Numbered from the stretch's first letter, positions 3,376 to 29,812 are shown. The stretch: 64,000 bases of DNA from an uncultured Methanosarcinales archaeon (GCA_964354685.1 CAYHAM010000002.1:71058-135057); one strand, 5' to 3'. Program-made: numbers and translations. The notes: a model not told the origin generated them from the letters alone.

Positions 3376-5406
3376 ATGAAGATACTCTTCTATGCCATAA
3401 ACGGGGTGGGTTTAGGCCATGTGAACAGAACCCTAGCAATAGCCAAAGAGATAAGAAAACTAAGCCCAAAAGCCCATATAATGTTTGTCACCAATTCTCA
3501 ATTTCCTGATTTAATTGAAAAAGCTAACTTCCCTTACATAAAGCTGCCAATCTTTGAAGGAGACCCTCTTACAAAGGATATGACAAGATACATACCTTAT
3601 TTAGTAAATGAAAAGCTGATAGAAGCAACCTTGTATGACTATGAGCCAGATGCTGTTGTTTATGACACCCATTTTCCATTTGGAACTGTTAAAAAAGCAA
3701 GTGAATTCAATGTTAAAAACATACTAATACTTAGAAAGCTGAAAAACAAGGTTCTTGATGATTACATAAAACAGTTTAAGCATTTTGATCTAATAGTCTT
3801 GGCCCACTCTGAACAAGAGTTTTTAGATATGAAAGTTTCAAAACAATTAATACAAAAGATAAAGAATAAAGGCATTGTGTTTGTTGGTCCAATCATAAGA
3901 AAACCAGAAAATATAGAACCAAATTACAACTTAAACAAATTTAACATCCTTGTAACAGCTGGTGGAGGAGGTTGGAATGATTCCAAGAAGTTTGTTGAAA
4001 TTTGTCTAAAAGTTTGCAAAAAAATTGTTAATAAAAACAAAAACATCAATTGCTACATCATAACAGGCCCTTTATACAGATGGAATATTAATCATATCAA
4101 AAATAACAACATTATAATCAAAAGCTTTGAACCCAAACTGATAGATCTAATGCAAAAATGTGATTTGGTTGTTTCTCAAGCAGGGTATAATGTATGCAAT
4201 GAAATCATGCTAACAAAAACACCAGCAATAATTATCTCAAGAAAAGACCCACTTGAAGACCAAAGAGAAAGGGCAAAATGGCTTTCAGAAAAAGGTGTTG
4301 CAATAACAATCAACACCTTAAATGAAAAAACATTAACAGAAGCTATTGAAAAGTTTTACCAAAATAAAGTTCTACAAACAAAGATGAAGAGAGCATTTTC
4401 TAATATTAAACTTGATATAGGTAATGAAAGATTATCAAAGATGATAATAAATTTGATACCAAAAAGAATAGAAAAACAGGTGAAGCTTTCAAGAAAAAAA
4501 CATAAACTCCTGGATTCAAAATATAGGCAAACCCAACAAATAGAAAAAAACCAAACAAATCTGTTGGAAGAAAAAGGCATACAGGAACAATGGGATACTC
4601 TACTAAAAAAAGAAACAAACCTTAGACAAAAACAAGGCGATATCTATTCCAAATTAGAACCATTATATAAAAAAATAAGAGAGTTAAAAAAACAAACACC
4701 ACAACAAGAATACATTAAACAACTCAATCCATTAGAAAAACAAAAACAACAACTCTTAAAACAAAACAAAAAACTAGAAGAACAAACTAAAAAACTAAAA
4801 GAACAAAACAAAACACTAAAAAACAAAGAGCCCTTTAAAACACTACTAGAACTACAAAAAGAACTCGATCAAAAATATGAAGAACTCTTTGAGCCATACA
4901 ACATCCAGATTGGAGAAGTAATACAGAAACAAGAGCTTGTTCTTGAGGGAAAATACACTGAAAAGACTTGGAATGCACTTGAAAAACAAAAACAAAGTTT
5001 GGAATCAGAAAAACACCAATTCTGGCAAAAAGAGTTAAAACCAATAGAAGACAAAGTTAACCTATCCAAAGCCAAAGTTAAAACATACACTAAAGAACAT
5101 GGCATCTTAGATATTAAAGAGATTGACAAAGATATTGAATCTCTATGGCAAGAAATCAACAAAAACAACAAAGAGCTACAACTTATAGACAACGACATAG
5201 AAAATCTCAACAAAGAAACTAATAAAATCCAAAAATTAGTTGACAAAAAATACAACAAACAACTCCTTCCTCTAGATTACAAGCTAGACAAAATACTCAA
5301 CGAAAAACAAGACTTCCTAAAAAAGCACAAACTATTTAAAGATTTCAAAAGACTGGACAAGGAAAGGGAAAGATTAAATAAAGAGATTTCAGAGCTGCAG
5401 GATTAA
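3376..5406 (+). CDS. UDP-glycosyltransferase (GT1/GT28 MurG/MGT-like N-terminal domain) fused to a ~300-aa K/E/Q-rich coiled-coil tail
   Basis: MKILFYAINGVGLGHVNRTLAIAKEI... (G-rich loop + GHVN), LVTAGGGGW, SQAGYNVCNEI; C-terminal half is low-complexity coiled coil (QKQQLLKQNKKLEEQTKKLKEQNK...). Stop at 5406, next ATG at 5408. Confidence 0.7.
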   Translation: MKILFYAINGVGLGHVNRTLAIAKEIRKLSPKAHIMFVTNSQFPDLIEKANFPYIKLPIFEGDPLTKDMTRYIPYLVNEKLIEATLYDYEPDAVVYDTHFPFGTVKKASEFNVKNILILRKLKNKVLDDYIKQFKHFDLIVLAHSEQEFLDMKVSKQLIQKIKNKGIVFVGPIIRKPENIEPNYNLNKFNILVTAGGGGWNDSKKFVEICLKVCKKIVNKNKNINCYIITGPLYRWNINHIKNNNIIIKSFEPKLIDLMQKCDLVVSQAGYNVCNEIMLTKTPAIIISRKDPLEDQRERAKWLSEKGVAITINTLNEKTLTEAIEKFYQNKVLQTKMKRAFSNIKLDIGNERLSKMIINLIPKRIEKQVKLSRKKHKLLDSKYRQTQQIEKNQTNLLEEKGIQEQWDTLLKKETNLRQKQGDIYSKLEPLYKKIRELKKQTPQQEYIKQLNPLEKQKQQLLKQNKKLEEQTKKLKEQNKTLKNKEPFKTLLELQKELDQKYEELFEPYNIQIGEVIQKQELVLEGKYTEKTWNALEKQKQSLESEKHQFWQKELKPIEDKVNLSKAKVKTYTKEHGILDIKEIDKDIESLWQEINKNNKELQLIDNDIENLNKETNKIQKLVDKKYNKQLLPLDYKLDKILNEKQDFLKKHKLFKDFKRLDKERERLNKEISELQD

Positions 5407-5407
5407 T

Positions 5408-6841
5408 ATGCGGAGGATAAAAGGGGTGGATAAAAACACCATTATAAAGTATTCTTTATTAGTACTAACCTTATTTTTAATACCTTTATTATCACTCTTT
5501 TTTATAGAGGGCACAACCCTTGCTTCAAAACTTGATTTCCTCTTTCAAATCCAAAAACCATTTTTAGTGTTGGGAGTTATGTTTGTGATATTGTTTTATC
5601 TAACAAAAGATAAAAAGATCATAAAAAAACCTAAGCTAAATTATTACTTTTTGATATCATCAATAATCCTTTTTCTCATATTGTCTGCACTTCAAATACC
5701 TTTTTTTGATGCCTTGCAATCTGGTTTAATACAAGTAACAGATCACGGGATAAAATATGACAAGGTTGGTTTTCTTGGTAATACTTTTTACAAAGGAGAA
5801 ACAACGCTAAATCAAAACATAAGTTTGATGAAAAGGATTTACTTAAACGAAATACCAGAAAGCCCTAAACTAAAATGGTATGGTTCATGGTTAGATGGCG
5901 ACAATGATGGTGTTTTTGGACGGGATTTTAAGATTTTTTTAAACATTAACAATCATGGGTATGATATAACTCAACAATTTTCTTCCCTTGACCAAGGAAG
6001 TACAGGATTGATGGAAACAACCATTGATCCACAAGACCTAAAAATAGGTGAGAACACATTGAGTTTTTGGATTCAATCCAACAAAAGCTTTGAAGCCATA
6101 ACATTGATAAAACATATTTACTATCATGAAAACTCTTTCATAACCTATGATAATGGAAAAACATGGCTGCAAGATGATGGAATGTTGCTAGCATTCCTTG
6201 AAAAAGATATCAAAATACATCCAATAAAGAGAATAATCTTCTCCTACAAACCTTTGTTTGTTCTAATATCCTCTATATTGTTATTCATAGGCTTTTTTGG
6301 TTTAAACTATTCAAAAGACTTGTTCAAAAAAGCAGATCTTGAGATATATGCTTCTGCTTTTGCAAGCATAGGTTTTTTCTATGGCACAGCTTTCATTAAA
6401 CAAAACTGGCGACCAATAGCAAACATTGTTGTAAGCCTAGTGTATGCACTTAGCTCTATATTTTTTAAAAATGTAATTGTTGATATAACCAATCCACACT
6501 GTCCATTCCTTGTTGTTAAAGATTTTTCATCAAGAATCTGTGAATCATCTTCTGGAGTTGAGTCAATAGGATATTTTACCTTGTTATTTTTCCTAATATT
6601 AATAACAAACTGGAAATCAATTGACAAGAAAAAAACATTGATCTTTTACTTCATTGGACTAGTAGGTAGTGTTATTGTAAACACCTTAAGGATATTCTCA
6701 ATAATAATGGTAGGAATCTACATAGATCCTGAGTTTGCCCAAGGAATATTCCATACAAATGTTGGTTGGATACTGTTTTTAATATACGCTGCTGCTTATT
6801 GGTTTTTATTATTACCTTACATTAAGAAAAAGAAAAAATGA
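5408..6841 (+). CDS. Archaeosortase/exosortase-family transpeptidase with a ~190-aa extracytoplasmic insertion after TM3
   Basis: Polytopic membrane protein; conserved exosortase motifs seen: Cys in C-x-SS-G-x-ES (RICESSSGVESIG), Asn/Arg in VNTLRIFS, C-terminal H..GW (FHTNVGWILFL); K-rich C-terminus. Confidence 0.7.
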   Translation: MRRIKGVDKNTIIKYSLLVLTLFLIPLLSLFFIEGTTLASKLDFLFQIQKPFLVLGVMFVILFYLTKDKKIIKKPKLNYYFLISSIILFLILSALQIPFFDALQSGLIQVTDHGIKYDKVGFLGNTFYKGETTLNQNISLMKRIYLNEIPESPKLKWYGSWLDGDNDGVFGRDFKIFLNINNHGYDITQQFSSLDQGSTGLMETTIDPQDLKIGENTLSFWIQSNKSFEAITLIKHIYYHENSFITYDNGKTWLQDDGMLLAFLEKDIKIHPIKRIIFSYKPLFVLISSILLFIGFFGLNYSKDLFKKADLEIYASAFASIGFFYGTAFIKQNWRPIANIVVSLVYALSSIFFKNVIVDITNPHCPFLVVKDFSSRICESSSGVESIGYFTLLFFLILITNWKSIDKKKTLIFYFIGLVGSVIVNTLRIFSIIMVGIYIDPEFAQGIFHTNVGWILFLIYAAAYWFLLLPYIKKKKK

Positions 6842-7431
6842 AAGCATACTTAATACCACTTTTAACATATATCCTAACCCCCTTAATATTAAATTTCTTT
6901 ATTAAAAATATTTATATCTCGTATTTTGTTGGTATTATTCTGACAGGAATTCTGCTTTTTTATTTCAGAAAACACTACAAAATAAAATTAAGAATAAAAC
7001 TCTTACCTTTTGTTATTGGAATTATCATTTTCCTTGTTTGGATATTTATCCCAAATATTTATCCTTTTTTCATTAGCACACAATTTGTTCCAACAAACAC
7101 TTCTTTTTTATTATTCAAATTGCTTGCAATGATAAGTGTTGTTCCCTTGACAGAAGAGCTCTTTACTCGTGGTTTCTTGATAAGATACTTTGCTACAAAA
7201 GATTGGAAAAAGGTTCAAATAGGCAAGTTTACCTGGCTTTCCTTTATTATTACAGTTCTGTTCTTTGGCTTTTCTCACAACAGGTGGTTATCAGGACTAA
7301 TTGTAGGAGTATTACTCAATCTTTTGTTATATAAAACAAAGAATTTGGGAGATTGTATTATTGCTCATAGCTTTGCAAACCTGTTGGTAGGAGTCTATGT
7401 TATATACACAAACTCTTGGTTTTTGTGGTGA
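6838..7431 (+). CDS. CPBP-family (CAAX/Abi, PF02517-type) intramembrane metalloprotease
   Basis: Motifs TEELFTRGF (EExxxR), FGFSHN (FxxxH) and IAHSFANL (second His) in a 6-TM protein; start overlaps archaeosortase stop by 4 nt. Confidence 0.8.
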   Translation: MKAYLIPLLTYILTPLILNFFIKNIYISYFVGIILTGILLFYFRKHYKIKLRIKLLPFVIGIIIFLVWIFIPNIYPFFISTQFVPTNTSFLLFKLLAMISVVPLTEELFTRGFLIRYFATKDWKKVQIGKFTWLSFIITVLFFGFSHNRWLSGLIVGVLLNLLLYKTKNLGDCIIAHSFANLLVGVYVIYTNSWFLW

Positions 7432-7488: not shown

Positions 7489-8406
7489 ATGGGGGTTAGT
7501 ACAGAGCTAAAAGAGTGGGTTAACAAGGGATTAAAAAAAGGCTACTCAAAGGACAAGCTTAGACAGGAGCTTACAAAGGCAGGTTATTCTGATAAGGACA
7601 TAACTTCTGCTTTAAAGGAAACAGGATCTAGCCCAAAGCGTAATCCTCTAGTTATTGGTATTGTTTTGATTGCAGTTATTATTGGATCTATTTACTTGTT
7701 TAATGCATTGCAGACAAAGGTCATTGTTCTTGAGGCTGAAAAGGACTTTAATTTGGGAGAGTGGGTGAGGGTAGAGCCGGAAGGCGACTATGTTGTTATA
7801 AACAACGAGACTGAAATTTGGAGTAGACCTTTCAACCTAAAAAAACTTTCCAATTTTCGCGAAGCACAAAAAATAAATGTCAGGGTTATTGCCAAAGGCG
7901 GTGAGGGGGAGGAGGAAAACCTGATTCTCATTTTAGAGGTTGTTAATCAGAGCCATTATGGAAATTTTGAGAACTCAACAATTTATCCTTCAATAGTCAC
8001 TGTCATTTCAGACGTAAGCGGCAATAAGACAATAGAGACCCGCTTCTCTGGCAAATATTTGAACGGAGTGATGAATGACAAATTGGTTCAGAAAAAAGGC
8101 ACTTTTGATACGTCCAACGCAGTCTTTATGAATAGCAGATTCCAAGATATGGTTATCGAGGGCAACAAAACAATCTTTTATTACAGAAAGGATAAATGGC
8201 CTGTGCTTTCTGTTGTCTTTGGAGAGGACCTCAACAACTGGAAGTTGCTGGAGATATCCTCAACAGAGTGGCAAAGTTTTCTGATTCAGTTTGACATGAA
8301 TAGGTTTTCAGACTTTGAAAATGCGGAATTAATATTCGAGTTAAGCACAGACACTTTAAACCCTATACCTACATACATTGATAAAGTTTATGTCACTTTA
8401 GAATAA
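7489..8406 (+). CDS. N-terminally anchored membrane/surface protein, paralog A (short cytoplasmic N-domain, one TM, ~230-aa external domain)
   Basis: MGVSTELKEWVNKGLKKGYSKDKLRQELTKAGYSDKDITSALKETGSSPKRNPLVIGIVLIAVIIGSIYLF...; first ~80 codons nearly identical at DNA level to 8756.. paralog. Confidence 0.6.
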   Translation: MGVSTELKEWVNKGLKKGYSKDKLRQELTKAGYSDKDITSALKETGSSPKRNPLVIGIVLIAVIIGSIYLFNALQTKVIVLEAEKDFNLGEWVRVEPEGDYVVINNETEIWSRPFNLKKLSNFREAQKINVRVIAKGGEGEEENLILILEVVNQSHYGNFENSTIYPSIVTVISDVSGNKTIETRFSGKYLNGVMNDKLVQKKGTFDTSNAVFMNSRFQDMVIEGNKTIFYYRKDKWPVLSVVFGEDLNNWKLLEISSTEWQSFLIQFDMNRFSDFENAELIFELSTDTLNPIPTYIDKVYVTLE

Positions 8407-8420
8407 ATTTCAAGTAAATA

Positions 8421-8648
8421 CTATCTCAATTTTTTCTTTATTATTATAGACAAACAGATGACGGCTAAAAGTGCTAAGACAGACGTGGCACCAGAAAATT
8501 CTGGTACGCAGTTACAACTCGCGTCGCAAACTTTTGTACCTGGGCAACCGCCGTCACACCCATTGCCTGCAAAACACGCCCCGAAAGCAACCGAAGAACT
8601 AAGTAGGATGAGAACAAACATGGTTAAAACCAAGGCACCTCTTTTCAT
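8421..8648 (-). CDS. Tiny secreted Cys-rich protein with PEF-CTERM-like sorting signal (putative archaeosortase substrate)
   Basis: MKRGALVLTMFVLILLSSSVAFGA (signal peptide) + CFAGNGCDGGCPGTKVCDASCNC (7 Cys in 23 aa) + VPEFSG + ATSVLALLAVICLSIII (TM) + KKKLR. Confidence 0.7.
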   Translation of the reverse strand: MKRGALVLTMFVLILLSSSVAFGACFAGNGCDGGCPGTKVCDASCNCVPEFSGATSVLALLAVICLSIIIKKKLR

Positions 8649-8755
8649 CTTAACAATTCTTTATAGATTTCTAATATATAAAGTTTTTGTTTTTCTGTTT
8701 TATTATTCACAAATAGTCAAAAACTAATTTAAACTACTTATATTTAAGCAGTAAT

Positions 8756-9685
8756 ATGGGGGTTAGCAAAGAGCTAAAAGAGTGGGTTAACAAGGGATTA
8801 AAAAAAGGTTACTCAAAGGACAAGCTTAGGCAGGAGCTTACAAAGGTAGGTTATTCTGATAAGGACATAACTTCTGCTTTAAAGGAAACAGGATCTAGCC
8901 CAAAGCGTAATCCTCTAGTTATTGGTATTGTTTTGATTGCAGTTATTATTGGATCTATTTACTTGTTTAATGCATTGCAGACAAAGGGAATTGTGCTAGA
9001 GGCAGAGAAAGATTTTAAGTCTGGTGACTTTGGTGTGGAGTTCGAGCCCTTTACTGATTACATCAGACTCAGCAGTAATGGCTATATCACAACCGAATCT
9101 CTGAATCTTAAGGAACTTAAAAACTTTGAAAAAGCAGACAAGATCAATGTTGAATTTATTGCCAGAGGAGAAACAGGCAAGGCAGAAAACATAGTCTACA
9201 CATACGAGCTTCTTGATGGTGAGACATTTGACAATTTGGAGGATTCAATGAATTACTCAACCAGGATAACTTTGCTCTGTGATATAACTTGTGACAAGAC
9301 TCTTGAGAAAAGCCTGAGCGGACAATGGCTGAACAGAGTCATGAATGAGAGACTTAACCAGGAAGAAGACACATTTGACCAGGGTGAAATCTTTGTTTCA
9401 CACGCCAAGTTCAAGGACATAACTGTTGAAGGGAACAAAATGGTTATACGATATGAGAGGAGTATCTGGCCTGTTGTTTATGTATCAACCTGGTCCACAG
9501 AATGCTTCTCCTGCAAAAAGCCTGCTGCGGTGGAAATATCTTCACAGGAATGGGAAACCTACACTGTACAGTTTGATTTGGCTGACCCGAAATCAGATTA
9601 TTCCTACCTGGGTATAGAATTGTCAACTGATGAAGAAAACCCAAAGCCGGTCTACATAGACCAAGTAATTGTCAGCTTAAAATAA
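8756..9685 (+). CDS. N-terminally anchored membrane/surface protein, paralog B
   Basis: Same N-terminal 80 aa as paralog A; diverged C-terminal domain with 4 Cys (CDITCDKT...STECFSCKKP). Confidence 0.6.
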   Translation: MGVSKELKEWVNKGLKKGYSKDKLRQELTKVGYSDKDITSALKETGSSPKRNPLVIGIVLIAVIIGSIYLFNALQTKGIVLEAEKDFKSGDFGVEFEPFTDYIRLSSNGYITTESLNLKELKNFEKADKINVEFIARGETGKAENIVYTYELLDGETFDNLEDSMNYSTRITLLCDITCDKTLEKSLSGQWLNRVMNERLNQEEDTFDQGEIFVSHAKFKDITVEGNKMVIRYERSIWPVVYVSTWSTECFSCKKPAAVEISSQEWETYTVQFDLADPKSDYSYLGIELSTDEENPKPVYIDQVIVSLK

Positions 9686-9688
9686 GCC

Positions 9689-9931
9689 TTACCTTAATCT
9701 TTTCTTTATTATCACAGCCAAGACAAAAACACACAGCATGGCTAGGATAGCAGTCACGCTTGAGAATTCAGGAACACACCCACAAGGAGGACCATCACAC
9801 GTCTGAGTGGGAGGAACGCATCCACCGTTACAGCCTCCATATCCGTCATTAACGCACGCACCAAAAACATTTGACGCACTTAACAATAAAACAGTTACAA
9901 GAATTATTAAAACCAAAGCACCTCTTTTCAT
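9689..9931 (-). CDS. Tiny secreted Cys-rich protein with PEF-CTERM-like sorting signal, paralog 2
   Basis: MKRGALVLIILVTVLLLSASNVFGA + CVNDGYGGCNGGCVPPTQTCDGPPCGC + VPEFSS + VTAILAMLCVFVLAVII + KKRLR. Confidence 0.7.
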   Translation of the reverse strand: MKRGALVLIILVTVLLLSASNVFGACVNDGYGGCNGGCVPPTQTCDGPPCGCVPEFSSVTAILAMLCVFVLAVIIKKRLR

Positions 9932-10017: not shown

Positions 10018-12381
10018 ATGAGAGTGGCACTATTTGCCCCAGAATTCCCTCCTAAGATTGGAGGCATGGAGAGATATGCATTTGAGCTAGCAAAAAGTCT
10101 CTCTAAAAACAACAAGGTTGGTGTTATAACAAGAGAAGATCATAAAAATATTGATTACAAAAAGCTTGGTTTAGCAAGTGTTAATGTTAAATGTTTACTA
10201 ACTTTAGATTTTGACCAAGATTTAGAGCTTGTTCTAGATTATTTAAAAAACAACAAAGCAGACATTTTACATATCAACAATGCAGGATTTTCTCCTGCCA
10301 TACCCAAGATAAAATCAAGACTTGATATCCCAGTTGTTGTTACAGTGCATGGAAAGGACTTCCTAAACTCTTTTATCTACACTAAACAAAATAAGAACAT
10401 AAGTAAAGATATACTGAATGCTGACAAAATAATAGCAGTTAGTAACTATGTAAAAAGCAGGATCATTAGACAAGATTTTGAGCCAGACAAGGTTGCTATT
10501 ATCTTACATGGCACAGATATTACCTTATTTAAACCCGAGAAAAAAGACACCAAATTGCTAAAAAAGCTTGGAATATCAGAACAAGACTTTGTTCTTTTAA
10601 CAGTTTCTAGGATTACAAAAAGAAAGGGGATAATACAAGTAATAAAACTCTTGCCAAACCTAATCAAAGAGACACCAAACCTAACATACCTTGTTATTGG
10701 TCCAACAAGAGAAACTGATTATTACAACACAGTAAAATTACTTGTTAAAAAATTAGGGTTAGAGAGGAATGTTATATTTACTGGTTATGTAAAAAATAAG
10801 GAGCTTCCCAAGTATTATAACCTATGTGATATATTTTTAATGCCAACCACAGAACCTTCTGAGGGAGACATAGAAGGCTTCGGGATTGTTTTTTTAGAGG
10901 CAAACTCTTGTGCAAAGCCTGTAATTGGCTCAAAAAATTCAGGTGCTGAAGATGCAATCATCAACGGAAAAACAGGTTTTTTAGTTAATATTAATAATGA
11001 AAAAGAAATAGAAAAAGTAATTATTAGATTATTAAAAAATAAAGAGCTAAGAGAAAAACTAGGAAAAGCAGGAAGAGCAAGGGTTATCAAAGAACTCAAT
11101 TGGAACAATGTGACTAAAAAAGTTTTAAATGTTTATAACAGTGTTATAAAACCCACCATCTACTTCAACAACTACATAATTCACAATGAACACTTTATTG
11201 GTGGTGCAAACCTCTACTACAACGAAGTCTCTCAAATTTTGAATAAACAAGGTTTTAATCACCTTAATTTTCATGATGTTCTAAACAATCCTGACATTAT
11301 TAAAAAGATAAAAAACAAAGACACAGTCATCACAAACTGCGGTCCTTATGCTTACATCTACCATTACTTAAGAAAAAAACACAATCTAAACTTTAGAATT
11401 GTCAGAGATGTTCAGGCAGCACTGTGGTCCGGTTATTTGCTCCAAGAAACTTTATGCTCAAAGATGCAGCAAGATAATGATATTATCTTATTCCCTTCAG
11501 AATACGCAAGACAGCTCTATATCAAGCTATTCCCACACATAAACAAAAACAACTCCTTTGTCTGCTACCCCTGCATGAAATTTTTTCCTAAAATTAAAAG
11601 GGTTAAAAAACCTTCTGATGGCTTGACTATTGGTTATCTTGGAAGAGTAAGTTATGAAAAAAACTTCAAACAATTGTTAGAGGCATTTGTTAATGTTTCT
11701 AAAAAAATAAACACAAAACTCTTAGTCGCAGGAAGAGTGGAAGACACAAGATTTATGCCAAACAATATCAAAAAAATGCTAAATGACAAAGGTATCAAAC
11801 CCAACAACTACACCCATATCAACAATGGGGGATATCTCTCATACAACAAGGTCTGGGAATTGCTACAAAAGATTGATTTACTAATCTTTCCATCAACAGC
11901 AAACGTAGAAACACTCGGACGGGTTATATTAGAAGCTGCTCATCTTAATATCCCAATTATAGCTGCTGAGCATGCTGCTTCTCCCGAACTTTCAGATAAA
12001 AAAAATCTTCTTAAAGTCAATTACTTTAAAAAAGCCAACAGTTTGGTGGGAACCTGTGCTCTTGGAAGTATTGATGTTGATGAGCTATGCAATAAAATAA
12101 CAAATCACAAAAAACTATCAAAAAACACCAATATTAACCAATACAAGGATCATGATAAAAAACTATTAAAGATAATTGATGGAAAACAAAAAACAGAGGC
12201 TTTTAAAAAATTAGATCCAAACATAGCTAACTTCATCACAAAACTCAATGTTGTTGGACTAGATGCAAGTGAAAACCTTATTGAAAAAACCATTCCCATC
12301 ATAAAAAACTTTGATTACAGAAGATTAAGCTATGCCAGAGTTGTGTGCAAAAAGATAAATTTCAAGCCTTATCTCTATTAA
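10018..12381 (+). CDS. Two-domain glycosyltransferase (tandem GT4-like GT-B domains)
   Basis: N-half: GT4 signature EGFGIVFLEANSCAKPVIGSKNSGAEDAIINGKTGFLV; C-half: second GT4-like region ETLGRVILEAAHLNIPIIAAEHAASPEL. Confidence 0.75.
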   Translation: MRVALFAPEFPPKIGGMERYAFELAKSLSKNNKVGVITREDHKNIDYKKLGLASVNVKCLLTLDFDQDLELVLDYLKNNKADILHINNAGFSPAIPKIKSRLDIPVVVTVHGKDFLNSFIYTKQNKNISKDILNADKIIAVSNYVKSRIIRQDFEPDKVAIILHGTDITLFKPEKKDTKLLKKLGISEQDFVLLTVSRITKRKGIIQVIKLLPNLIKETPNLTYLVIGPTRETDYYNTVKLLVKKLGLERNVIFTGYVKNKELPKYYNLCDIFLMPTTEPSEGDIEGFGIVFLEANSCAKPVIGSKNSGAEDAIINGKTGFLVNINNEKEIEKVIIRLLKNKELREKLGKAGRARVIKELNWNNVTKKVLNVYNSVIKPTIYFNNYIIHNEHFIGGANLYYNEVSQILNKQGFNHLNFHDVLNNPDIIKKIKNKDTVITNCGPYAYIYHYLRKKHNLNFRIVRDVQAALWSGYLLQETLCSKMQQDNDIILFPSEYARQLYIKLFPHINKNNSFVCYPCMKFFPKIKRVKKPSDGLTIGYLGRVSYEKNFKQLLEAFVNVSKKINTKLLVAGRVEDTRFMPNNIKKMLNDKGIKPNNYTHINNGGYLSYNKVWELLQKIDLLIFPSTANVETLGRVILEAAHLNIPIIAAEHAASPELSDKKNLLKVNYFKKANSLVGTCALGSIDVDELCNKITNHKKLSKNTNINQYKDHDKKLLKIIDGKQKTEAFKKLDPNIANFITKLNVVGLDASENLIEKTIPIIKNFDYRRLSYARVVCKKINFKPYLY

Positions 12382-12575
12382 TAGGTACCATGAATTGTAA
12401 CAGGTCTACCTTCTTCTGGATCTAGCCAAGCTGTTAAACCCTTTGCACTCTTTGATGCAACAATGCTTGCAACAGCAGCTGTACCAACAATTGCTCCAAC
12501 TGTTAGAACTGATTTTTTAGAGATCCTACCATTCTCTCTTTTCAAGAACAAACCTAGTTTTTCCTTTATACCCAT
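12378..12575 (-). CDS. Small hypothetical membrane protein (one TM helix)
   Basis: 65-aa ORF with hydrophobic VLTVGAIVGTAAVASIVA; overlaps GT4 stop; no homology recognised. Confidence 0.25.
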   Translation of the reverse strand: MGIKEKLGLFLKRENGRISKKSVLTVGAIVGTAAVASIVASKSAKGLTAWLDPEEGRPVTIHGTY

Positions 12576-12635
12576 TTGGTAACCTCTTTTTATACACTAA
12601 AAAACCTTTTATTAATAAAAGTTTCGATTTTTAAC

Positions 12636-12887
12636 TCAATGTTTAAACTCCTTAATAGCACTATTAATGACTCCAAGCATATAATTATGGAAAGCATATC
12701 CCAACTCTTTATTCACAATCCCTTTCTTTGGCTTTAAACTCACAATTACCTTGTCAAAAGGGTCTCCATCCAAAAAAACCCAGTTCTTTTTTGTAAAAAC
12801 CCTGACTGTTTGAAGTATTGCCAAGTAACCATAAAAGTGCGTATCTATAATAATCCTCACTTCACCATCTTTTATCTCAAGGCTCAT
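12636..12887 (-). CDS. Small hypothetical protein, paralogous to N-terminal half of 12877..13272
   Basis: Shared pattern Y-x-L-x2-V-x6-F-x9-GDP-x4-IV-x3-PK with upstream neighbour; same operon as prepilin peptidase. Confidence 0.45.
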   Translation of the reverse strand: MSLEIKDGEVRIIIDTHFYGYLAILQTVRVFTKKNWVFLDGDPFDKVIVSLKPKKGIVNKELGYAFHNYMLGVINSAIKEFKH

Positions 12888-13272
12888 CTGTCTCCTCCCA
12901 TGGCTTGTTTATACCATAAGGATCATCTAAATAGCCCTCTTCTAACTCAGGCTCCTGCTTTTTTAAGGCTCTTGAAACAATCTGCTTTTTGAGTTCTAAA
13001 CCCCCTTCTGATTCCACCTTGTGTGTCAATAAAACTATCAACAAATTGTCAAAGCTCCTCCCCAGCAGCTCAAGATCTAATTGCATTTTTGGCCTGAACT
13101 CGACAATTATCTCTTCTTCAGGGTCACCTCTTATCATGATAAATGACTGCTTCATAAAAGGCTCACAAGCCTTATAAACAACATCAAGAGGATAAACCCT
13201 TGGATTAAGAGAAACGAGAATACTCTCTTGCTGAATCTCTAAATTATTAACTATTGTAACCTTAAAGGTCAT
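12877..13272 (-). CDS. Small hypothetical protein (paralog pair with 12636..12887), acidic C-terminus
   Basis: IMIRGDPEEEIIVEFRPK vs VFLDGDPFDKVIVSLKPK; immediately downstream of the prepilin peptidase gene on the same strand. Confidence 0.45.
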   Translation of the reverse strand: MTFKVTIVNNLEIQQESILVSLNPRVYPLDVVYKACEPFMKQSFIMIRGDPEEEIIVEFRPKMQLDLELLGRSFDNLLIVLLTHKVESEGGLELKKQIVSRALKKQEPELEEGYLDDPYGINKPWEETDEP

Positions 13273-13309
13273 ATAAATCCACTCCCCAGTCGTAAAAGAA
13301 AGTTTTGTT

Positions 13310-14317
13310 TTATATAAATCTTTCTATGAGTGTTCTTAGAAAAACAAAGAGGTTACCTTGGCACACAATGGTTATCAAAACGCCCATAAATATAATCACA
13401 GCAAAAGGCAATGTTTCATGGATAATTACCCTTTTATCCTCTTTTATAATCTTTTTTATTTTATTAGGTGTAAGTGTAACTAGACCTTCCTTTGTCTGCA
13501 TAGCCATTCCAGGCTCAAGGTCTTTCGCATTCACTCTTCTTGTAAGAACCATGTCTCCAAACTCTTTTAAAACAATTATGCCAAGCAATATCACAAATAT
13601 AGCGACAAAATCCTTCCAAAAGCCTATTGTAAAAACATTACTGTAATCAAAAATCAGCCTAAACAATGAAAAGAGTAAACCGATTTTCAACTTGTCCCAA
13701 CCAAACCTTTCGATCACATAAAAAAGCAGAAAAATTGCAATTATACTTATAAAAAAATAGTTTGGAATTTTAATCAATGCAAGCAAGTTTCTAACCAACC
13801 AAGAAAACCCAAAAACCAGGAGAACTAGACCAATTAATGCCTTTGTTTCAAAAGCCTTCCTAAAACAATCTTTCTTCTGCTTTGTATTTGATTTTAACAA
13901 AACATAAAAAGCATAATAAACAAAAACAGGTGTAAATGTATTTATAAGAATAACAAAAGAAGGAAAATAATCAATATTCCCAAATTGATAAATTGACAAT
14001 GGAACAAGAGCTGAGAATGCAATAAACAGCTTTGCATCTGCAGGGCTCCAAAGATTCAACTCAAAAAATAAATATCCAAGCAATATGGCAAACAGAATAT
14101 TTGTAAAAAGAGTTGTATAATAAATAGGGTTTGGCAAAAGCCCAAGATAATTACCCAATAAAAACCTTATCAAGATTATTATCAAAGAAACAACTATTGC
14201 TGAAAAAACCCACTTGTTTCTTATCTTGCTAAACTTTATATCTTCATAAGTTGTTATTGCACCAAGCAATACAACAAAAATTATTGACAAAGCATCTACC
14301 ACCCATAGCATAAGCAA
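13310..14317 (-). CDS. Archaeal type IV prepilin/preflagellin peptidase (A24 family, PibD/FlaK/EppA-like) with extra C-terminal region
   Basis: Polytopic membrane protein with first catalytic Asp region TTYEDIKFSKIRNKW and second Asp motif NLWSPADAKLFIAF (G/A-x-GDxKL-like). Confidence 0.65.
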   Translation of the reverse strand: MLMLWVVDALSIIFVVLLGAITTYEDIKFSKIRNKWVFSAIVVSLIIILIRFLLGNYLGLLPNPIYYTTLFTNILFAILLGYLFFELNLWSPADAKLFIAFSALVPLSIYQFGNIDYFPSFVILINTFTPVFVYYAFYVLLKSNTKQKKDCFRKAFETKALIGLVLLVFGFSWLVRNLLALIKIPNYFFISIIAIFLLFYVIERFGWDKLKIGLLFSLFRLIFDYSNVFTIGFWKDFVAIFVILLGIIVLKEFGDMVLTRRVNAKDLEPGMAMQTKEGLVTLTPNKIKKIIKEDKRVIIHETLPFAVIIFMGVLITIVCQGNLFVFLRTLIERFI

Positions 14318-14382
14318 AAAAAGAAAGTTATAGATTTTTTAAATCTTTGCTTTTGGAGTATTTAACTATTTTATTATTAGAT

Positions 14383-14650
14383 TAAACACTCGCGAGGTTG
14401 CTACAAATTATTAAAATTTTATTACTAAAAATAACCTTCGCGGGGTTGCTTGTTATAACCTCATTATACGCAACCCCGTGGTGATAGGGTTCCTATCCTC
14501 TTCAGGAAGCAAGGAACCTCAGATAAGTACACGCTTGATATGTCAGAATACCAGAGGTATTCTGAGCATGATCAAAAACAATCTTTGTTGTTTTTGACAT
14601 AAGCAAGAGATATATCACTCGTGAATTATTTTAAAATTAAAAAGAAGATT
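14383..14650 (+). repeat. Copy 1 of a conserved structured intergenic element (hairpin gcggggttgc/gcaaccccgt + 50-nt conserved core + ACTCGTGAATT tail)
   Basis: Core gttcctat..ctcttcaggaagcaaggaacctcagataagtacacgcttgatatg is ~90% identical to 23607-23660; 3' end atcactcgtgaattattttaaaatt matches 23727-23750. Confidence 0.6.
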
Positions 14651-14687
14651 GTTATTGAAAATATTAATAAAGTAGAATTATAAAACA

Positions 14688-15119
14688 TCACTTACAATCA
14701 ATATCAATCCTGAAGTCTATGTTTCGTTCGGGGAAATACAGTTCTAAGCTTTTTGACACCACTTGGTTTGGTTGGATGTAACCAAGGCTTACAACATCAT
14801 AACTTATACCATCATTGCCTTTAAATAGTAATACCTCTGCATAACACTCTTTTTCAGTGGAAAATGTATGTTTAATATCAAAATTAATGAGAGTCTTTTC
14901 TCCCTCCTCCAACTCTAAGTTGGTAACAATTATCTTACCTAAGGGTCTGTTTTTGCACAGCAGAAGAATAATTATTATAAATCCGACAACAAAAACAATT
15001 GGAACAAATTTTTTATTAGAACTCTTGCTTTTCTTTACTATTTTTTTCCTAATGGTTTTTTTAATAGGCCTTTTACTTCTAGCTTTGTACCTCTTTTTTG
15101 CCATACTAAATCTACCCAA
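14688..15119 (-). CDS. Membrane protein with extremely basic N-terminal tail, one TM helix and ~90-aa external domain
   Basis: MGRFSMAKKRYKARSKRPIKKTIRKKIVKKSKSSNKK then FVPIVFVVGFIIIILLL. Confidence 0.5.
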   Translation of the reverse strand: MGRFSMAKKRYKARSKRPIKKTIRKKIVKKSKSSNKKFVPIVFVVGFIIIILLLCKNRPLGKIIVTNLELEEGEKTLINFDIKHTFSTEKECYAEVLLFKGNDGISYDVVSLGYIQPNQVVSKSLELYFPERNIDFRIDIDCK

Positions 15120-15211
15120 TATTTAAACTATTTAAAACTTTTTATTTTTGAAAACAAAAACTATATAAATCAAAAGCATATGAAACTTATTTAAATATAA
15201 AAAAGAGGGAT

Positions 15212-17827
15212 TTGATGAAAAATTTTTTTATATTAATGGTTATTTTCCTTGCAATAATTTCAACTGCTTCTTATGCAGCATTCTGGTGTCAATATAGAGT
15301 AAATGATGGAGAATGGGTTACAGGGCATAGTAGTAATACTGAATGTATTTATGAATTATACTGTGCCGAGGGGGATAAATATGACACAAGGATAAGGGAC
15401 ACAGGTACTACTCCTGACACATATCAAAGACTTGGCACACTATGGGGTGTAGCCAGAAGAGTAGGTACTGATGGCACTTGGGGTAATCAGACAGTACCCT
15501 CTTGCTGTAATGATGCAAATGATTGCTTATACGCAAGCAAGTGTTGGGATAATGGTTTAATTGCTGGAAGTATTCCTAACAGACACTACTGTAACAATGG
15601 AATATGGCAAGGAGGTGATGCTGGCTCTACTCGGTGCACAGCTATCAAAGGTTCTGGATATTGGGCTTTAGGAGGAGAGGTTGCTGCTAGCAACTGTTGT
15701 GGAGATGATACTAATGAGTTTCGTATAAGTGGAAGTGGCTACATAAGATGTTGTAATGCTTCCATTGATTGTGTTGATTCTACTGGGACTTGCAGGGATG
15801 GCACAGAGCTGTGTGGAGCTGATGGCAAGGGAGATGGTATTGACAATGATTGCAATGGACAAACAGATGAGATCTGCGAATGCAACCCAAGTGATACAAG
15901 ACAATGCGGCCCAAACACAGAAGATGGTCCATGCGAGTATGGCACACAAACCTGCCAGCCAGATGAGACATGGGGTGATTGCATAGGAGGAGTCTACCCT
16001 ATTAATGAGCTTTGTGTTAATGGAATTGATGATGATTGTGACAACTCCACAGACGAAGTAGAATGCTGTGGAAACGGAGATGATACAGACCCAGGTGAGG
16101 AGTGTGAACCTCCAAGCACATATTTATCATCATGTGACCAATATGGAGCAACATACTTACAAGATTCTTGTGACTATAAATGTGAATTACAGGATGGCAG
16201 CACTTGTGAATCTGGTTATGCTGGCTGCACATCATATTCTGGATGTGATGGAATAGCTCCTGAGACTTGTATAGACACTAAAACCATTTGCACAAGCGAC
16301 TGCCAATATGAAGAAAGGGATAACAACCAAAACTATTGTACTGACTCCACTGGATGTGTTCCTTTCAGTTGGATCCCATCTGGTGAAGATGGTGTTGGTG
16401 AATATGACTTTGTTGGAGATGTTGAATGCTGTGGAGATGACTTTGATGAATTTTCCACATATTACAATATGGGAGCAACTGGTGGTTGTAATGACATCAC
16501 AATTGAAGAATGCATAGGACTGCCAGATAACACAAGTGATATTGCTTGCTGTAATAATCAAACAGACTGTGTTTTCCAAAAAACTTGTTACCCAATTAGT
16601 AGTCTGCTTGATATTGATGGTGATCTTATAAATGGAGAGTTTTGTAGTCAAGTTGATGATACAGAATGGAAAGATTGTGATATAAGCCAAAACGCATGTG
16701 AAAACACTTGTGGTTATACTTATGTAATGGGAGGAGAAAATAACACTTTTGGTGAATATGATGAAGGAAGTTCAACAGAGTGCTGTGGTGATGATGCTGA
16801 TGAAAGTGTTAATTGGAGACAAGTAAGTAGCCAAACAAAATTCTCTGGTTATGAGGAGATCTACTCTAACCCAAGCGATAGAGCATGCTGCCAAAGCCCA
16901 AATAGCTGTGTTTTTAATGGAAAATGCTATATGGATGTAGATGATGTCAAAACCCTTTATGGAGTAACAGATGTATACGACTCTCCTTATAGAAACTTAT
17001 CTTACTTTGATTTAAATAATGATAGTGCGCTAGAAATGTGTGACCCTGGCAATTGGACAGATCCTTATGAATCTGAGGAAGGATGTGAAGATATGGGTGG
17101 TGTATGGATAAAAATTAATGGAGAAGATGTTTGCTATATTTATATCCCACCTGGACCTCCTAGCCCTCCTGAACCACCTGCACCCCAAGAGCCACCTGAT
17201 CCTAATAAACCCCAATACCCTGATCCACCCCCATCAGAGATTGCTGCAACATTCTATGGAAAAGTGGATAATATTGATGGCTTTAACATTAGTGGTGCTC
17301 TAGTTGAGTTTATAGGTACTTCTAAAATAATACCAGGAACAACAATCTGGTATTACACATATACAAATTCATCTGGTAATTACCTAATCTATGTTTTGGG
17401 TAATGCAACCTATGATATACTTGTTTCAAAGCAAGATTACCAATCTTCCTCAAAGATAATCCAATATATAAAAATACAAGATACAAAACAAGTAAACTTC
17501 ACATTAATTAGCTCTTATGAACAATGCACACAAGACTGCACATTCCAAGATGATGAGTATTGTCATGCAAGCTGTGATGGAAGGGTTGGTTGCCAATTTA
17601 ATAGCACTCAAACAAAGAACATCTGTAATGGAAAAGTGAGTGGATGGGTTGTTGACTATAATACAACCCATGAGATTATCTGTTGTGAAAGCTCACCTCA
17701 TGAAAAGAGATATTTACGAGTTGTGAAGATACAAACAGGTATTGATATTAAGAATATTGTGAGAATAATTAGATTGGTTATTCTAAGAGGCAAGCCAGCT
17801 AAGATGATAGTAGATACCTTTGGATAA
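15212..17827 (+). CDS. Large secreted Cys-rich protein with MopE-like putative metal-binding motifs, three CCGDD repeats, Pro-rich linker and C-terminal carboxypeptidase-regulatory-like beta-sandwich
   Basis: Signal peptide MMKNFFILMVIFLAIISTASYAA; GDGIDNDCNGQTDE and GIDDDCDNSTDE; NCCGDDTNEF / ECCGDDFDEF / ECCGDDADES; PPGPPSPPEPPAPQEPPDPNKPQYPDPPP; FYGKVDNIDGFNISGALVEF...NSSGNYLIYV. Confidence 0.7.
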   Translation: MMKNFFILMVIFLAIISTASYAAFWCQYRVNDGEWVTGHSSNTECIYELYCAEGDKYDTRIRDTGTTPDTYQRLGTLWGVARRVGTDGTWGNQTVPSCCNDANDCLYASKCWDNGLIAGSIPNRHYCNNGIWQGGDAGSTRCTAIKGSGYWALGGEVAASNCCGDDTNEFRISGSGYIRCCNASIDCVDSTGTCRDGTELCGADGKGDGIDNDCNGQTDEICECNPSDTRQCGPNTEDGPCEYGTQTCQPDETWGDCIGGVYPINELCVNGIDDDCDNSTDEVECCGNGDDTDPGEECEPPSTYLSSCDQYGATYLQDSCDYKCELQDGSTCESGYAGCTSYSGCDGIAPETCIDTKTICTSDCQYEERDNNQNYCTDSTGCVPFSWIPSGEDGVGEYDFVGDVECCGDDFDEFSTYYNMGATGGCNDITIEECIGLPDNTSDIACCNNQTDCVFQKTCYPISSLLDIDGDLINGEFCSQVDDTEWKDCDISQNACENTCGYTYVMGGENNTFGEYDEGSSTECCGDDADESVNWRQVSSQTKFSGYEEIYSNPSDRACCQSPNSCVFNGKCYMDVDDVKTLYGVTDVYDSPYRNLSYFDLNNDSALEMCDPGNWTDPYESEEGCEDMGGVWIKINGEDVCYIYIPPGPPSPPEPPAPQEPPDPNKPQYPDPPPSEIAATFYGKVDNIDGFNISGALVEFIGTSKIIPGTTIWYYTYTNSSGNYLIYVLGNATYDILVSKQDYQSSSKIIQYIKIQDTKQVNFTLISSYEQCTQDCTFQDDEYCHASCDGRVGCQFNSTQTKNICNGKVSGWVVDYNTTHEIICCESSPHEKRYLRVVKIQTGIDIKNIVRIIRLVILRGKPAKMIVDTFG

Positions 17828-17878
17828 GGACTTTTTCTAAAATATCAATTAACACAAAATTTATAAACCAACATATAT

Positions 17879-18397
17879 ATGAAAAGCATTATGAAAAAGG
17901 GGTACTTCTTTATGCTGGATGCATTTATATCAATGAGTATTATAGTTCTCAGCCTTATATTAATTTTATCATTCCACTCTTCAAAGCCATACCAAATGCA
18001 GGGGATATTCCTAGCACAAGACACCATGGACTTATTGGCCAAAACAAAAATATATGAGCTTGACAATGATTTTGTAATTAATCTCACCCTGGAAGGCAAT
18101 ATAACCAACACTGATTATTCATTGCTTGAACAAACAGCAGAGTTCTTTGTTACTAACCAAACAGAGCTTGCTCAAGATTTTATAATAAATGTCACTCAAA
18201 ATATGGTGTCTGACAAATACGGATTCGAGCTCAGAATTTACAATGACACAAATTTGTTTAATATAACAGTCACCCCTGGAATAAATCTACAAAATGAATC
18301 AAACATACTCTTAATCTCAAAAGAGATTGTTTCTGGTATGTTGGAAGATTACTCAACATGGGGACCAATGACAGCTGAGGTGAGAGTGTGGCAATAA
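17879..18397 (+). CDS. Archaeal type IV pilin-like protein (class III signal peptide)
   Basis: MKSIMKKG|YFFMLDAFISMSIIVLSLILILSF: KKG followed by a hydrophobic helix, typical PibD/EppA cleavage context. Confidence 0.6.
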   Translation: MKSIMKKGYFFMLDAFISMSIIVLSLILILSFHSSKPYQMQGIFLAQDTMDLLAKTKIYELDNDFVINLTLEGNITNTDYSLLEQTAEFFVTNQTELAQDFIINVTQNMVSDKYGFELRIYNDTNLFNITVTPGINLQNESNILLISKEIVSGMLEDYSTWGPMTAEVRVWQ

Positions 18398-19398
18398 AGA
18401 ACAAGAAAGGAATGTTTTTTACACTAATCGCGATCATAATGGTTATTGCAATAATCCTATTCTTCACCCCTAATTATGAGTATCTGCCACAAATGAGTCA
18501 AATCCCAACAAAAAAGGTTAGGGTAACAAAAGCCAACAATCTAATGAGTAACTTTAAAACAACACTAATTGAAAGAGAATTAAAAAGCTCTAGTTATTAT
18601 GCTGTTAAGCAATTGATACAATGCATTAACAATCAAAGCGAGTTCTCAGAGGATTTGCAAGCAGATTTTGCTGAGATCCTTCTAAATGGCACATTTAAAG
18701 GAAATGTTCTAGCAACAGAGTGTGGCAATGACCAGATGACTGGTAGAACACTACCCCCTAAGTTAGAACAACTAAGTAATGTTTCTGAAGAAGAATTTCA
18801 CCTACCAACAAACTTCACTATCCTTAATGTCACAATATACCAATCAAACCTTACAAGCTATGACTCCTTTGCTGTTGACCTAAGCCTTAATATCAAAATG
18901 GATGCAGGAATAGCAGGATGGGACACAAATACCATCATAACAACAATACTTGATGTTGAAGATTTTGATGATCCTTATTATTTGGCAAATGCCAATTTCA
19001 CAAATAAGATAAACTTTTCGAATATCACCAACTGGACAACAAGCCTTGTCTTTGATCACATTGATGCTATGCACTATGTATTTGAAGAGCAGGCCCCAAG
19101 CTTTTTGATGAGGTTTGAGAACAACAGTGCTGCATCTTCTTGCTGCGGAATAGAATCTTTAGTAAATCCAAATGAGTTAAACATAAGTGATGAGCCATGG
19201 AGCTATGTTGATTATTGCTTTTATGGTCATGGGTGCAATGATTCAAGATCAGGAAACAAAAGTTTGTGGAACATAACAGGCATAAGCAGTGGAGATGAAA
19301 CAGAGAAGTTTTATATGTTCAAGCTAGAGATATACCACATTGATAAATACGACCTTGCTGCTGATGACAGGGTTGTTTGCGAAGGTTCTTGTCCATGA
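18388..19398 (+). CDS. Archaeal type IV pilin-like protein (class III signal peptide), larger, Cys-containing C-terminal domain
   Basis: MAIKNKKG|MFFTLIAIIMVIAIILFF; overlaps upstream pilin-like gene (operon). Confidence 0.6.
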   Translation: MAIKNKKGMFFTLIAIIMVIAIILFFTPNYEYLPQMSQIPTKKVRVTKANNLMSNFKTTLIERELKSSSYYAVKQLIQCINNQSEFSEDLQADFAEILLNGTFKGNVLATECGNDQMTGRTLPPKLEQLSNVSEEEFHLPTNFTILNVTIYQSNLTSYDSFAVDLSLNIKMDAGIAGWDTNTIITTILDVEDFDDPYYLANANFTNKINFSNITNWTTSLVFDHIDAMHYVFEEQAPSFLMRFENNSAASSCCGIESLVNPNELNISDEPWSYVDYCFYGHGCNDSRSGNKSLWNITGISSGDETEKFYMFKLEIYHIDKYDLAADDRVVCEGSCP

Positions 19399-19877
19399 GC
19401 TACTACGATTCAATCTCAAAAGGCTATGAAGAGCTTTATGGAGAAGAACAACTAAGCAAAGCAAGGATTATTTTGGAGAATATTAAGCCTAATAAAAAAC
19501 AATATTTATTAGATATTGGATGTGGCTCAGGAGCTTTCTTAGAGCTTTGTGAATGTAAAAAAGTAGGAATAGACACAAGCTTAGGATTATTAAAAAAAGC
19601 AAAAAACTTTGTTGTGCAAGGCAAGGCAGAGTCTCTGCCATTCAAAGACAAAAGCTTTGACTATGTTGTTTCTATCACCTCAATCCACAACTTTGATGAC
19701 ATTGACAAAGCTATCAAAGAGATAAAAAGAGTTGCAAAAGGTAAAGTGATAATAAGCCTGCTTAGAAAAACAAATGATTTTGACAAAATCAGTAAAAAGC
19801 TTGAAAAAAATTTTCTTTTAAAAAAAGTAATACTTGAGAAAAAGGATGCTATATTCTTTCTCAACAATAAAATTTAA
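19395..19877 (+). CDS. Class I SAM-dependent methyltransferase (small, Rossmann fold)
   Basis: Motif I LLDIGCGSGAF; start ATG at 19395 overlaps pilin stop (ATGA); track ORF started at 19377. Confidence 0.7.
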   Translation: MSYYDSISKGYEELYGEEQLSKARIILENIKPNKKQYLLDIGCGSGAFLELCECKKVGIDTSLGLLKKAKNFVVQGKAESLPFKDKSFDYVVSITSIHNFDDIDKAIKEIKRVAKGKVIISLLRKTNDFDKISKKLEKNFLLKKVILEKKDAIFFLNNKI

Positions 19878-29328: not shown

Positions 29329-29465
29329 TTTAGATTTATAGTGAAATTTTATTTTCCTCCTGTCATATTAAACATCCCACTAATTAATAATCAATCAGAA
29401 CCATTTTTATAATTCAAAATCCTTATTTATATATAAATCTTTTGGTTATTTACCACCAAACAGTA

Positions 29466-29789: not shown

Positions 29790-29812
29790 TTTGATTACCT
29801 CTATAATCTTGA

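Follow-up and report, generated by a model that had tools for sequence, protein, structure and literature searches.

An A24 peptidase of HXS-type loci, probably beside a detached pilus-operon front end, in a Woesearchaeota-like archaeon

The 64-kb stretch of DNA analysed here (CAYHAM010000002.1:71058-135057, hereafter the window) carries at positions 12378-19877 the genes for a family A24 peptidase, two small HxsD-like proteins, two pilin-like proteins and an 871-amino-acid (aa) cysteine-rich secreted protein. The original prediction had regarded these genes as one type IV pilin-like locus, in which the peptidase and the pilin-like proteins form a dedicated pair, yet the region probably consists of two cell-envelope modules lying side by side. 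Module A (12378-15119, minus strand) comprises the genes for the membrane protein p143, the A24 peptidase, HxsD, HxsD_rel and the small protein p65, and can be read with fair confidence as a reduced archaeal HXS cassette. Module B (15212-19877, plus strand) comprises p871, p172, p336 and a methyltransferase, and on balance appears to be the detached front end of a DPANN type IV pilus operon. In bacteria, HxsABCD form the HXS antiphage system, a barrier against the entry of phage DNA (Li et al., Nat Commun 2026, PMC13128918); the HXS families are described by the models TIGR03976-03979. As a tentative explanation, this A24 clade may have been recruited in DPANN archaea as the dedicated protease of radical-SAM-matured, probably O-glycosylated HxsA4 peptides, as an anti-viral counterpart of the bacterial system, of which the window and one relative would hold a derivative that is free of radical-SAM enzymes and linked to pilus tip genes.

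All seven open reading frames (ORFs) of the originally predicted locus were found at the positions given for them, although its range left out a 65-aa ORF (p65, 12378-12575, minus strand) at one end and the methyltransferase gene (19395-19877, plus strand) at the other. The GC content of the window is low (~35%), and Pfam scans identify genes for an elongation factor of the eEF1A type, an AMP-phosphorylase-like protein, a glycogen synthase and an archaeosortase. Nearly all homologues of the locus genes come from metagenome-assembled genomes of Woesearchaeota and other DPANN archaea, and the host is a tiny, Woesearchaeota-like DPANN archaeon. Loci from the genomes of relatives used for comparison are denoted by L-numbers.

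The link between the peptidase and HXS genes emerged from a synteny census. One genome per GTDB species was scanned with the peptidase alignment, yielding 80 DPANN loci, and local hidden Markov models (HMMs) were built from seeds; synteny was counted in the 53 species-representative loci with at least 3 kb of downstream sequence. HxsD follows the peptidase directly and on the same strand in 42 of the 53, HxsB lies within 3 kb in 40, and a recognisable HxsA is present in 32. An HXS cassette is found nearby in three further loci, and in some relatives (L013, L038, L049) it is located several kb from the peptidase or on the opposite strand. No T2SSE pilus ATPase was found within 10 kb in any of ~85 peptidase loci. 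Judged by gene order, the HXS cassette is the conserved partner of this A24 clade, and the supposed dedicated pairing of the peptidase with the two pilin-like proteins is not supported.

The peptidase itself (13310-14311, minus strand, 333 aa) is, according to alignment, profile, clade and synteny, a polytopic aspartyl peptidase of family A24 that belongs to an HXS-linked DPANN clade. Its ORF is open to 14317 (335 aa), and both the homologues and the public gene call put the start at 14311, two codons later. Alone, it scores 16 bits on Pfam PF01478, under the cut-off of 26.5, and a single-sequence phmmer search against the PDB gave no match. It is assigned to A24 because its relatives match the family and both catalytic Asp residues are kept. 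Among 29 relatives retrieved, several carry both PF01478 and PF06819 (Arc_PepC), and of 20 aligned homologues, 18 match Peptidase_A24 at E<=0.01 (best 6.4e-8) and 13 match Arc_PepC. D24 and D92 are invariant in this alignment; in the window D24 sits in YEDIKFSKIRNK and D92 in WSPADAKLF, and the homologues show YEDIK..KIRNK and W..[GA]DAKL around the two positions. The peptidase profile also aligns to FlaK (3S0X, E=2e-4), with both Asp falling on the FlaK motifs QDFRSREIED and GGGDGK, whose Asp residues we take to be the catalytic D18 and D79. The original assignment to the prepilin peptidases is upheld in this respect, with D24 and D92 both present. NCBIfam holds no model for the HXS-linked clade, and a single weak NCBIfam match to EppA appeared among the 20 homologues (E=1.1e-4). 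EppA carries an Arc_PepC-type C-terminal domain; the window peptidase has a deletion of ~37 residues in the Arc_PepC region. In a neighbour-joining tree, the window peptidase pairs with that of L009, inside a group formed by L071, L007 and L008, all of which have HxsD and HxsB.

Downstream of the peptidase lie the 131-aa HxsD homologue (12877-13272) and the 83-aa HxsD_rel (12636-12887), both on the minus strand. The two had already been suspected to be paralogues, as BLASTP confirms (E=1.5e-10), and HMM searches lead to HxsD_rel and HxsD. The window proteins score 16-19 bits on the NCBIfam HxsD-type models, which have cut-offs of 41-50 (for the 83-aa protein, NF038315 with E=1.3e-3), and the 131-aa protein has a weak precomputed match to PF27806 (HxsD). 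Three relatives of the peptidase are followed by HxsD, a small protein, a radical-SAM protein of ~460 aa and another small protein. Here, the radical-SAM protein reaches 429-475 bits on the HxsB model TIGR03978 (cut-off 370), while in L002 the first small protein scores 49.7 bits on HxsD TIGR03976 (cut-off 50), the second 42.9 bits on HxsD_rel NF038315 (cut-off 41) and the last 66 bits on HxsA4 NF038313 (cut-off 55); HxsD falls 0.3 bits short and the other three reach their cut-offs. The relatives' HxsA4 proteins contain long HxSHxS runs. The 131-aa window protein matches the HxsD of L002 at E=3e-32, and the 83-aa protein matches a relative's HxsD_rel at E=1e-20, its L002 orthologue being 49% identical. 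HxsD_rel is the second gene after the peptidase in most loci. In the 131-aa protein, the motif NEL(I/L)NYAVY is degenerate and the C-terminal DDPYGIxKPWEE tail is conserved.

The 65-aa protein p65 shows a weak NCBIfam match to the HxsA3 leader and homology to the relatives' HxsA4 proteins, which lie downstream of HxsB, both by BLAST (E=4e-9) and by HMM. Its basic leader, with an invariant G-x-I-S-K (ENGRISK), precedes a hydrophobic helix; an AxA-like site and then a short core follow, with VTIHGTY at the end. No HxS repeats are present in p65, and this terminal stretch holds its one H-x-T unit; relatives have up to 53 units. The leader is a family trait, as G-x-[IVM]-[STAP]-K occurs 6-7 residues before a hydrophobic helix of ~18 residues in 48 of 49 distinct HxsA-type proteins, in which an AxA-like site comes after the helix and the core has Tyr or Trp as its last residue. 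On these sequence similarities, the 83/131-aa pair are clear homologues of HxsD_rel and HxsD, and p65 is an HxsA4-type precursor.

Some HxsA4-type precursors end in Cys-rich tails, which come after the HxS repeats or replace them (L017 5590-7552, with two tandem precursor genes; L007 7997-8494; L034 5482-5709, where the tail reads CGCGCGCGC). HxsA4 cores are therefore diverse behind one conserved leader. In L033 (19578-20159, minus strand), a 193-aa fusion protein unites an HxsD domain with a leader of the HxsA type (GEQGNISK), a helix and a core that is acidic and rich in Gly, Ser and Cys; in the manner of a Rosetta stone, it hints that HxsD may act on the leader.

The membrane protein with a poly-basic tail that the original prediction had noted is p143 (14688-15104, minus strand, 138 aa; the 143-aa ORF extends to 15119), a single-pass protein with a polybasic cytoplasmic tail and, beyond its transmembrane helix, a small extracellular domain that holds two Cys. 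L008 and L009 have p143 homologues immediately upstream of the peptidase, eight other peptidase or HXS loci contain homologues as well, and pilus loci contain none; this distribution marks p143 as an accessory gene of HXS loci. Convergent with p65 lies GT787 (10018-12381, plus strand), identified by Pfam as a 787-aa double GT4 glycosyltransferase, and its position in L009 is the same (49% identity). Next to p143 homologues, ~4 kb from HXS cassettes in L021 and L030, lie homologues of the C-terminal half of GT787, and GT787 is possibly associated with the HXS module.

Further genes tie the peptidase clade to peptide modification. In L016 (9977-12640) and L045 (8195-10756), the HXS-linked peptidase is fused to a PMT_2 domain, resembling GT-C protein O-mannosyltransferases, and stand-alone PMT_2 proteins occur in ~14 peptidase loci and in no pilus locus. 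Because PMT_2 is fused to, or occurs with, HXS-linked peptidases and is missing from pilus loci, it suggests that the Ser-rich HxsA4 peptides may be glycosylated. Paralogous peptidases without an adjoining HXS cassette sit next to B12-binding radical-SAM enzymes (L015 12876-14873, L067 8479-9873, L081 11148-12386), and in L015 a PMT_2 protein is adjacent as well. Taken together, the links to PMT_2, to radical-SAM enzymes and to the HxsD-leader fusion point to a probable role in peptide maturation, not filament assembly.

The combination of HxsD and HxsD_rel without HxsB is limited to the window and L009, with L012 and L033 ambiguous. Both retain peptidase-HxsD-HxsD_rel-HxsA. The HxsB HMM found no match anywhere in the 64 kb, with 13 kb covered to one side and 50 kb to the other, and none within 10 kb on either side in L009. 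In scans of the larger ORFs of the window, a single radical-SAM/SPASM protein turned up (43298-44302); it was considered as the missing maturase and rejected, as neither HxsB nor HxsC was among the 25 best of its 69 matching NCBIfam families. L009 has the same 11 genes as the window (GT787, p65, p871, p143, peptidase, HxsD, HxsD_rel, p172, p336, methyltransferase and a DUF1189 protein), with 31-54% amino-acid identity, all ORFs intact and the block from p871 to HxsD_rel inverted. The loss of HxsB coincides with a precursor core shortened to ...VTIHG[ST]Y, with the degenerate NEL(I/L)NYAVY of HxsD (the counterpart of LLNDYxLRE), seen in these two genomes only, and with the absence in both peptidases of part of the Arc_PepC region that is present in their HxsB-containing sisters.

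Because no ORF is disrupted in either genome and p65 ranks with the best-conserved genes of the block (53-60% identical to its L009 orthologue), we read the HxsB-less cassette as a stable derivative rather than as decay. Were module A instead a decaying, non-functional remnant left after the loss of HxsB, the missing HxS repeats, the degenerate HxsD motif and the deletion in the peptidase would be accounted for along with HxsB itself; it is nevertheless very improbable that five ORFs would have stayed intact in two genomes diverged to 33-54% identity, with p65 so well conserved and with both catalytic Asp, the leader motif and the C-terminal tail of HxsD retained. Alternatively, the cassette could be complete yet split, with HxsB, and possibly HxsC, encoded outside the window and still modifying p65. 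Short-core HxsA variants do occur alongside HxsB elsewhere (...GTHANY and ...GSHTHY in L042 and L030), the window covers only 64 kb of a contig of ~260 kb, and the displaced cassettes of L013, L038 and L049 offer a precedent. The HxsB-free surroundings in the window and in L009, however, together with an HxsD motif that is degenerate in these two genomes only and an Arc_PepC-region deletion shared by both peptidases, make such a split rather doubtful. A PADLOC 2023 scan returned generic viperin and methyltransferase matches only; PADLOC 2023 holds no HXS models.

Module B begins with p871 (15212-17827, plus strand), followed by p172 (17879-18397, plus strand; 172 aa, or 168 aa from the MKKG start at 17891), p336 (18388-19398, plus strand; 336 aa) and a 160-aa class I S-adenosylmethionine methyltransferase (19395-19877, plus strand; Pfam Methyltransf_11, 70 bits), the start of which overlaps the p336 stop codon. 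The class-III-type N-termini originally ascribed to p172 and p336 pass a home-made FlaFind-like rule and are the only convincing ones among the window ORFs, and alignments show the K-K-G junction to be nearly invariant in both families. The N-terminus of p172 reads MKKG/YFFMLDAF and is followed by a hydrophobic helix and an alpha/beta domain; K2, K3, G4, Y5, F6 and F7 are nearly invariant in the family, and L9 and D10 invariant. That of p336 reads MAIKNKKG/MFFTLIAII, and the protein carries the conserved motif APSFLMRF...SSCCGIESLVNPN; none of its more than 225 homologues has a Pfam domain. The homologues and a public gene call support the MKKG start of p172 (17891) and a GTG start of p336, and a p172 homologue directly precedes a p336 homologue in 77 loci. 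AlphaFold2 models were obtained with mean confidence (pLDDT) values of 85 for p172 and 84.6 for p336, and p172 most resembles PDC sensor domains.

That these KKG proteins belong to a pilus system, as first proposed, is borne out by their neighbours. A metagenome scan gave 80 further p336 loci, and 34 loci of the family with at least 4 kb downstream were counted. In 23 of them, the order is one or two copies of a p130-like gene, p172, p336, a 150-aa gene, a 330-aa gene, the gene for the T2SSE ATPase, a pair of T2SSF platform genes and genes for small pilins whose N-termini are of the SQAALEF type; the two accessory genes are also present in five more loci. A sub-family formed by the window, L009, L087, L089, L113 and L162 has p172-p336 followed by an overlapping small methyltransferase gene, with no ATPase nearby. 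Bacterial PilD N-methylates pilins, and it is therefore conceivable, by analogy, that the p336-coupled enzyme serves as a separate pilin methyltransferase. The absence of assembly ATPase and platform genes from the 64 kb had been pointed out before and was confirmed, as Pfam scans of 20 of the largest ORFs (at least 300 aa) outside the locus and jackhmmer searches with DPANN ATPase and platform seeds found neither T2SSE, T2SSF nor other families of the pilus operon. The ATPase, the platform and the major pilins would have to lie elsewhere in the host genome.

The large protein p871 has a Sec-type signal peptide and 68 Cys (7.8%), in keeping with its earlier description as a Cys-rich protein with a MopE motif; a regular expression finds one clean MopE-like motif, CVNGIDDDCDNSTDE at residue 268, which Pfam does not recover. 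The single Pfam hit is CarboxypepD_reg at 682-765, below threshold. From N- to C-terminus, p871 has a variable, repeat-rich part, a Pro-rich linker, the CarboxypepD_reg-like domain and a conserved C-terminal domain (676-871). A search gave 2,117 relatives, mostly through the Cys-rich repeats. The C-terminal domain (the last ~190 residues) is always C-terminal in the 29 ORFs that bear it in the retrieved loci, and of the 28 pilus loci whose upstream sequence extends for at least 3 kb, 14 encode it upstream on the same strand, behind N-terminal parts of very different lengths. This census, together with that of p172 and p336, places p871, p172 and p336 at the head of a type IV pilus operon, most likely in an adhesin-plus-minor-pilin role. 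Of the adhesion module originally suggested, what is upheld is p871 as the variable, adhesin-like head gene of a pilus operon; the peptidase and the 83/131-aa pair probably belong to the HXS module instead.

How the modules relate can be judged from their relatives. Modules A and B adjoin in the window and L009 only. In the L008 genome a separate contig (L087) carries the pilin-like pair, in that of L071 the pair lies ~30 kb off (L089), and in L043 the pilus front end is found 8 kb downstream of a full HXS cassette. By motif alone, candidate cleavage substrates of the peptidase are p172 and p336, with KKG before a hydrophobic stretch, and p65, with ENG/RISK 6-7 residues before the helix. The region might be envisaged as one attachment locus, with the A24 enzyme as the organism's prepilin peptidase, p172 and p336 as its main substrates, the HxsD-like genes as bystanders or extra clients and the motor encoded elsewhere. 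The window indeed holds no other A24 gene, the K-K-G junctions are kept in both families, L009 arranges peptidase-HxsD-HxsD_rel-p172-p336 as a same-strand cluster, L043 has both elements within 8 kb, and most pilus operons have no adjoining peptidase of their own. Such an arrangement seems unlikely all the same, given the HXS adjacency and the lack of pilus ATPases in the peptidase census, the distant pilin-like pairs in the nearest relatives and the clade's fusions and links to PMT_2 and radical-SAM enzymes. Moreover, separate, more divergent A24 enzymes of the GGGD type exist outside the HXS clade: L097 has one with the canonical GGGD motif immediately upstream of a pilus operon, and L063 has a 269-aa GGGD-type A24 protein in a housekeeping neighbourhood, in a genome that also holds an HXS-linked copy.

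In the mechanism proposed for module A, the p65 precursor would insert with its N-terminus in the cytoplasm, where the HxsD proteins would bind its conserved leader; this step has support in the L033 fusion and in the HxsC-HxsD complex reported for bacteria (PMC13128918). The A24 protease, which we infer to be the cutter of HxsA4, would then cleave at the cytoplasmic face of the membrane, at the invariant Gly 6-7 residues before the helix, in the fashion of a prepilin peptidase, and the short peptide, which contains His and ends in Tyr, would be released or displayed outside the cell. By analogy with bacterial HXS, its function could be an envelope defence against viral DNA entry.

Several observations weigh against this interpretation and the two-module layout. 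The window HxsD and A24 proteins score under the curated HMM thresholds. K-I-S-K, with its basic and polar residues, comes after the conserved Gly of the leader, so that the hydrophobic stretch does not adjoin the Gly, and position -2 holds an acidic residue; these residues set the site apart from a canonical class III signal. The AxA-like site after the helix could be cut by signal peptidase I. The evidence spans 64 kb, and HxsB, a second A24 enzyme and the pilus motor may sit elsewhere in the genome. A pilin fold of p172 and p336 was not established by fold searches, as Foldseek against the PDB gave nothing significant. Lastly, a gap of only 23 bp separates HxsD_rel of L009 from the pilin-like genes that come next on that strand, which makes co-expression with the peptidase plausible. 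The A24 enzyme may also process the two KKG proteins, although this is not the conserved role of its clade; its presumed substrates are HxsA4, the pilin-like proteins or both.

Other parts of the window encode further envelope-related and unassigned proteins. Upstream, at 3376-7431, lies a cell-surface biogenesis cluster with a GT28-like 676-aa protein, a 477-aa archaeosortase (Exosortase_EpsH, E=2e-12) and a 197-aa intramembrane protease of the Rce1/CPBP type. It is followed at 7489-9931 by two paralogous membrane-anchored proteins of 305 and 309 aa, nearly identical over their first ~75 residues; after each comes an opposite-strand ORF of 75-80 aa (8421-8648 and 9689-9931), beginning MKRGALVL..., with a signal-peptide-like N-terminus and Cys. 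A secreted, highly acidic 536-aa protein (51382-52992, minus strand) has a signal peptide, an (EA)n stretch, a C-terminal transmembrane anchor and no Pfam match, and is probably a surface protein. Three ORFs of 319, 398 and 403 aa (28369-31411; 58082-59293, minus strand) gave no Pfam match.

The broader association of A24 peptidases with HXS is the more interesting result, beyond the reduced cassette of the window. In the open-access literature searched, no paper links A24 peptidases to HXS or to leader removal from peptides that are made by ribosomes and modified after translation (RiPPs), and prepilin peptidases go unmentioned in a review of RiPP leader-removing proteases (PMC10885120). Models for HxsA4, HxsC4 and HxsD_rel already exist in NCBIfam. 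Bacterial HxsA needs N-terminal processing, and a peptidase or protease is never mentioned in the text of the bacterial study (PMC13128918); the A24 protease inside DPANN HXS cassettes is a concrete candidate for this trimming step. If it were the HXS trimming enzyme, HXS would extend to archaea, and prepilin-peptidase-like enzymes would have a role outside filament assembly. For annotation, a "prepilin peptidase" beside KKG proteins should not be taken as a pilus locus in these genomes, and the conserved gene order of the DPANN pilus operon, including its variable adhesin-like head gene, bears on how episymbionts attach to their hosts.

Compared with bacterial HXS, the window shares HxsD homologues, an HxsA-type leader, an export signal and a His-containing core, and its relatives carry bona fide HxsB and His-Xaa-Ser repeats; the effector of the bacterial system is likewise N-terminally processed and exported. 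The published HXS survey was confined to bacteria; Pseudomonadota account for 99.7% of the systems, and the four-gene order is HxsD-B-C-A (PMC13128918). In contrast, the cassettes described here are found in DPANN hosts in the order peptidase-HxsD-HxsD_rel-HxsB-HxsA, with a second HxsD paralogue, usually without HxsC, with an HxsA that has no peptidoglycan-binding domain and with an A24 membrane protease as part of the cassette, and the window further differs in having no HxsB, HxsC or repeats.

Like FlaK, EppA and PibD, the window peptidase is a polytopic membrane protein with two Asp in D-x-K-x-x-x-I-x-N and x-G-D-x-K-L motifs, and its homologues share the Arc_PepC-type C-terminal domain with EppA. 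Unlike these enzymes, the HXS clade has W-[STN]-[AP]-[GA]-D instead of GGGD as its second motif, and its neighbours are HXS genes, radical-SAM enzymes and PMT_2 proteins, not pilins, archaellins and ATPases. Module B, in turn, recalls GspK-I-J, PilY1 with its minor pilins and Epd pili, where a large variable surface protein and several pilin-like proteins stand at the operon head, and the DPANN operon also has T2SSE, T2SSF and small pilins of the QxxxEF type. It departs from these systems in that p172 and p336 have no sequence similarity or significant fold similarity to known minor pilins, and in that the module of this lineage is separated from the motor genes, with a small methyltransferase coupled to it.

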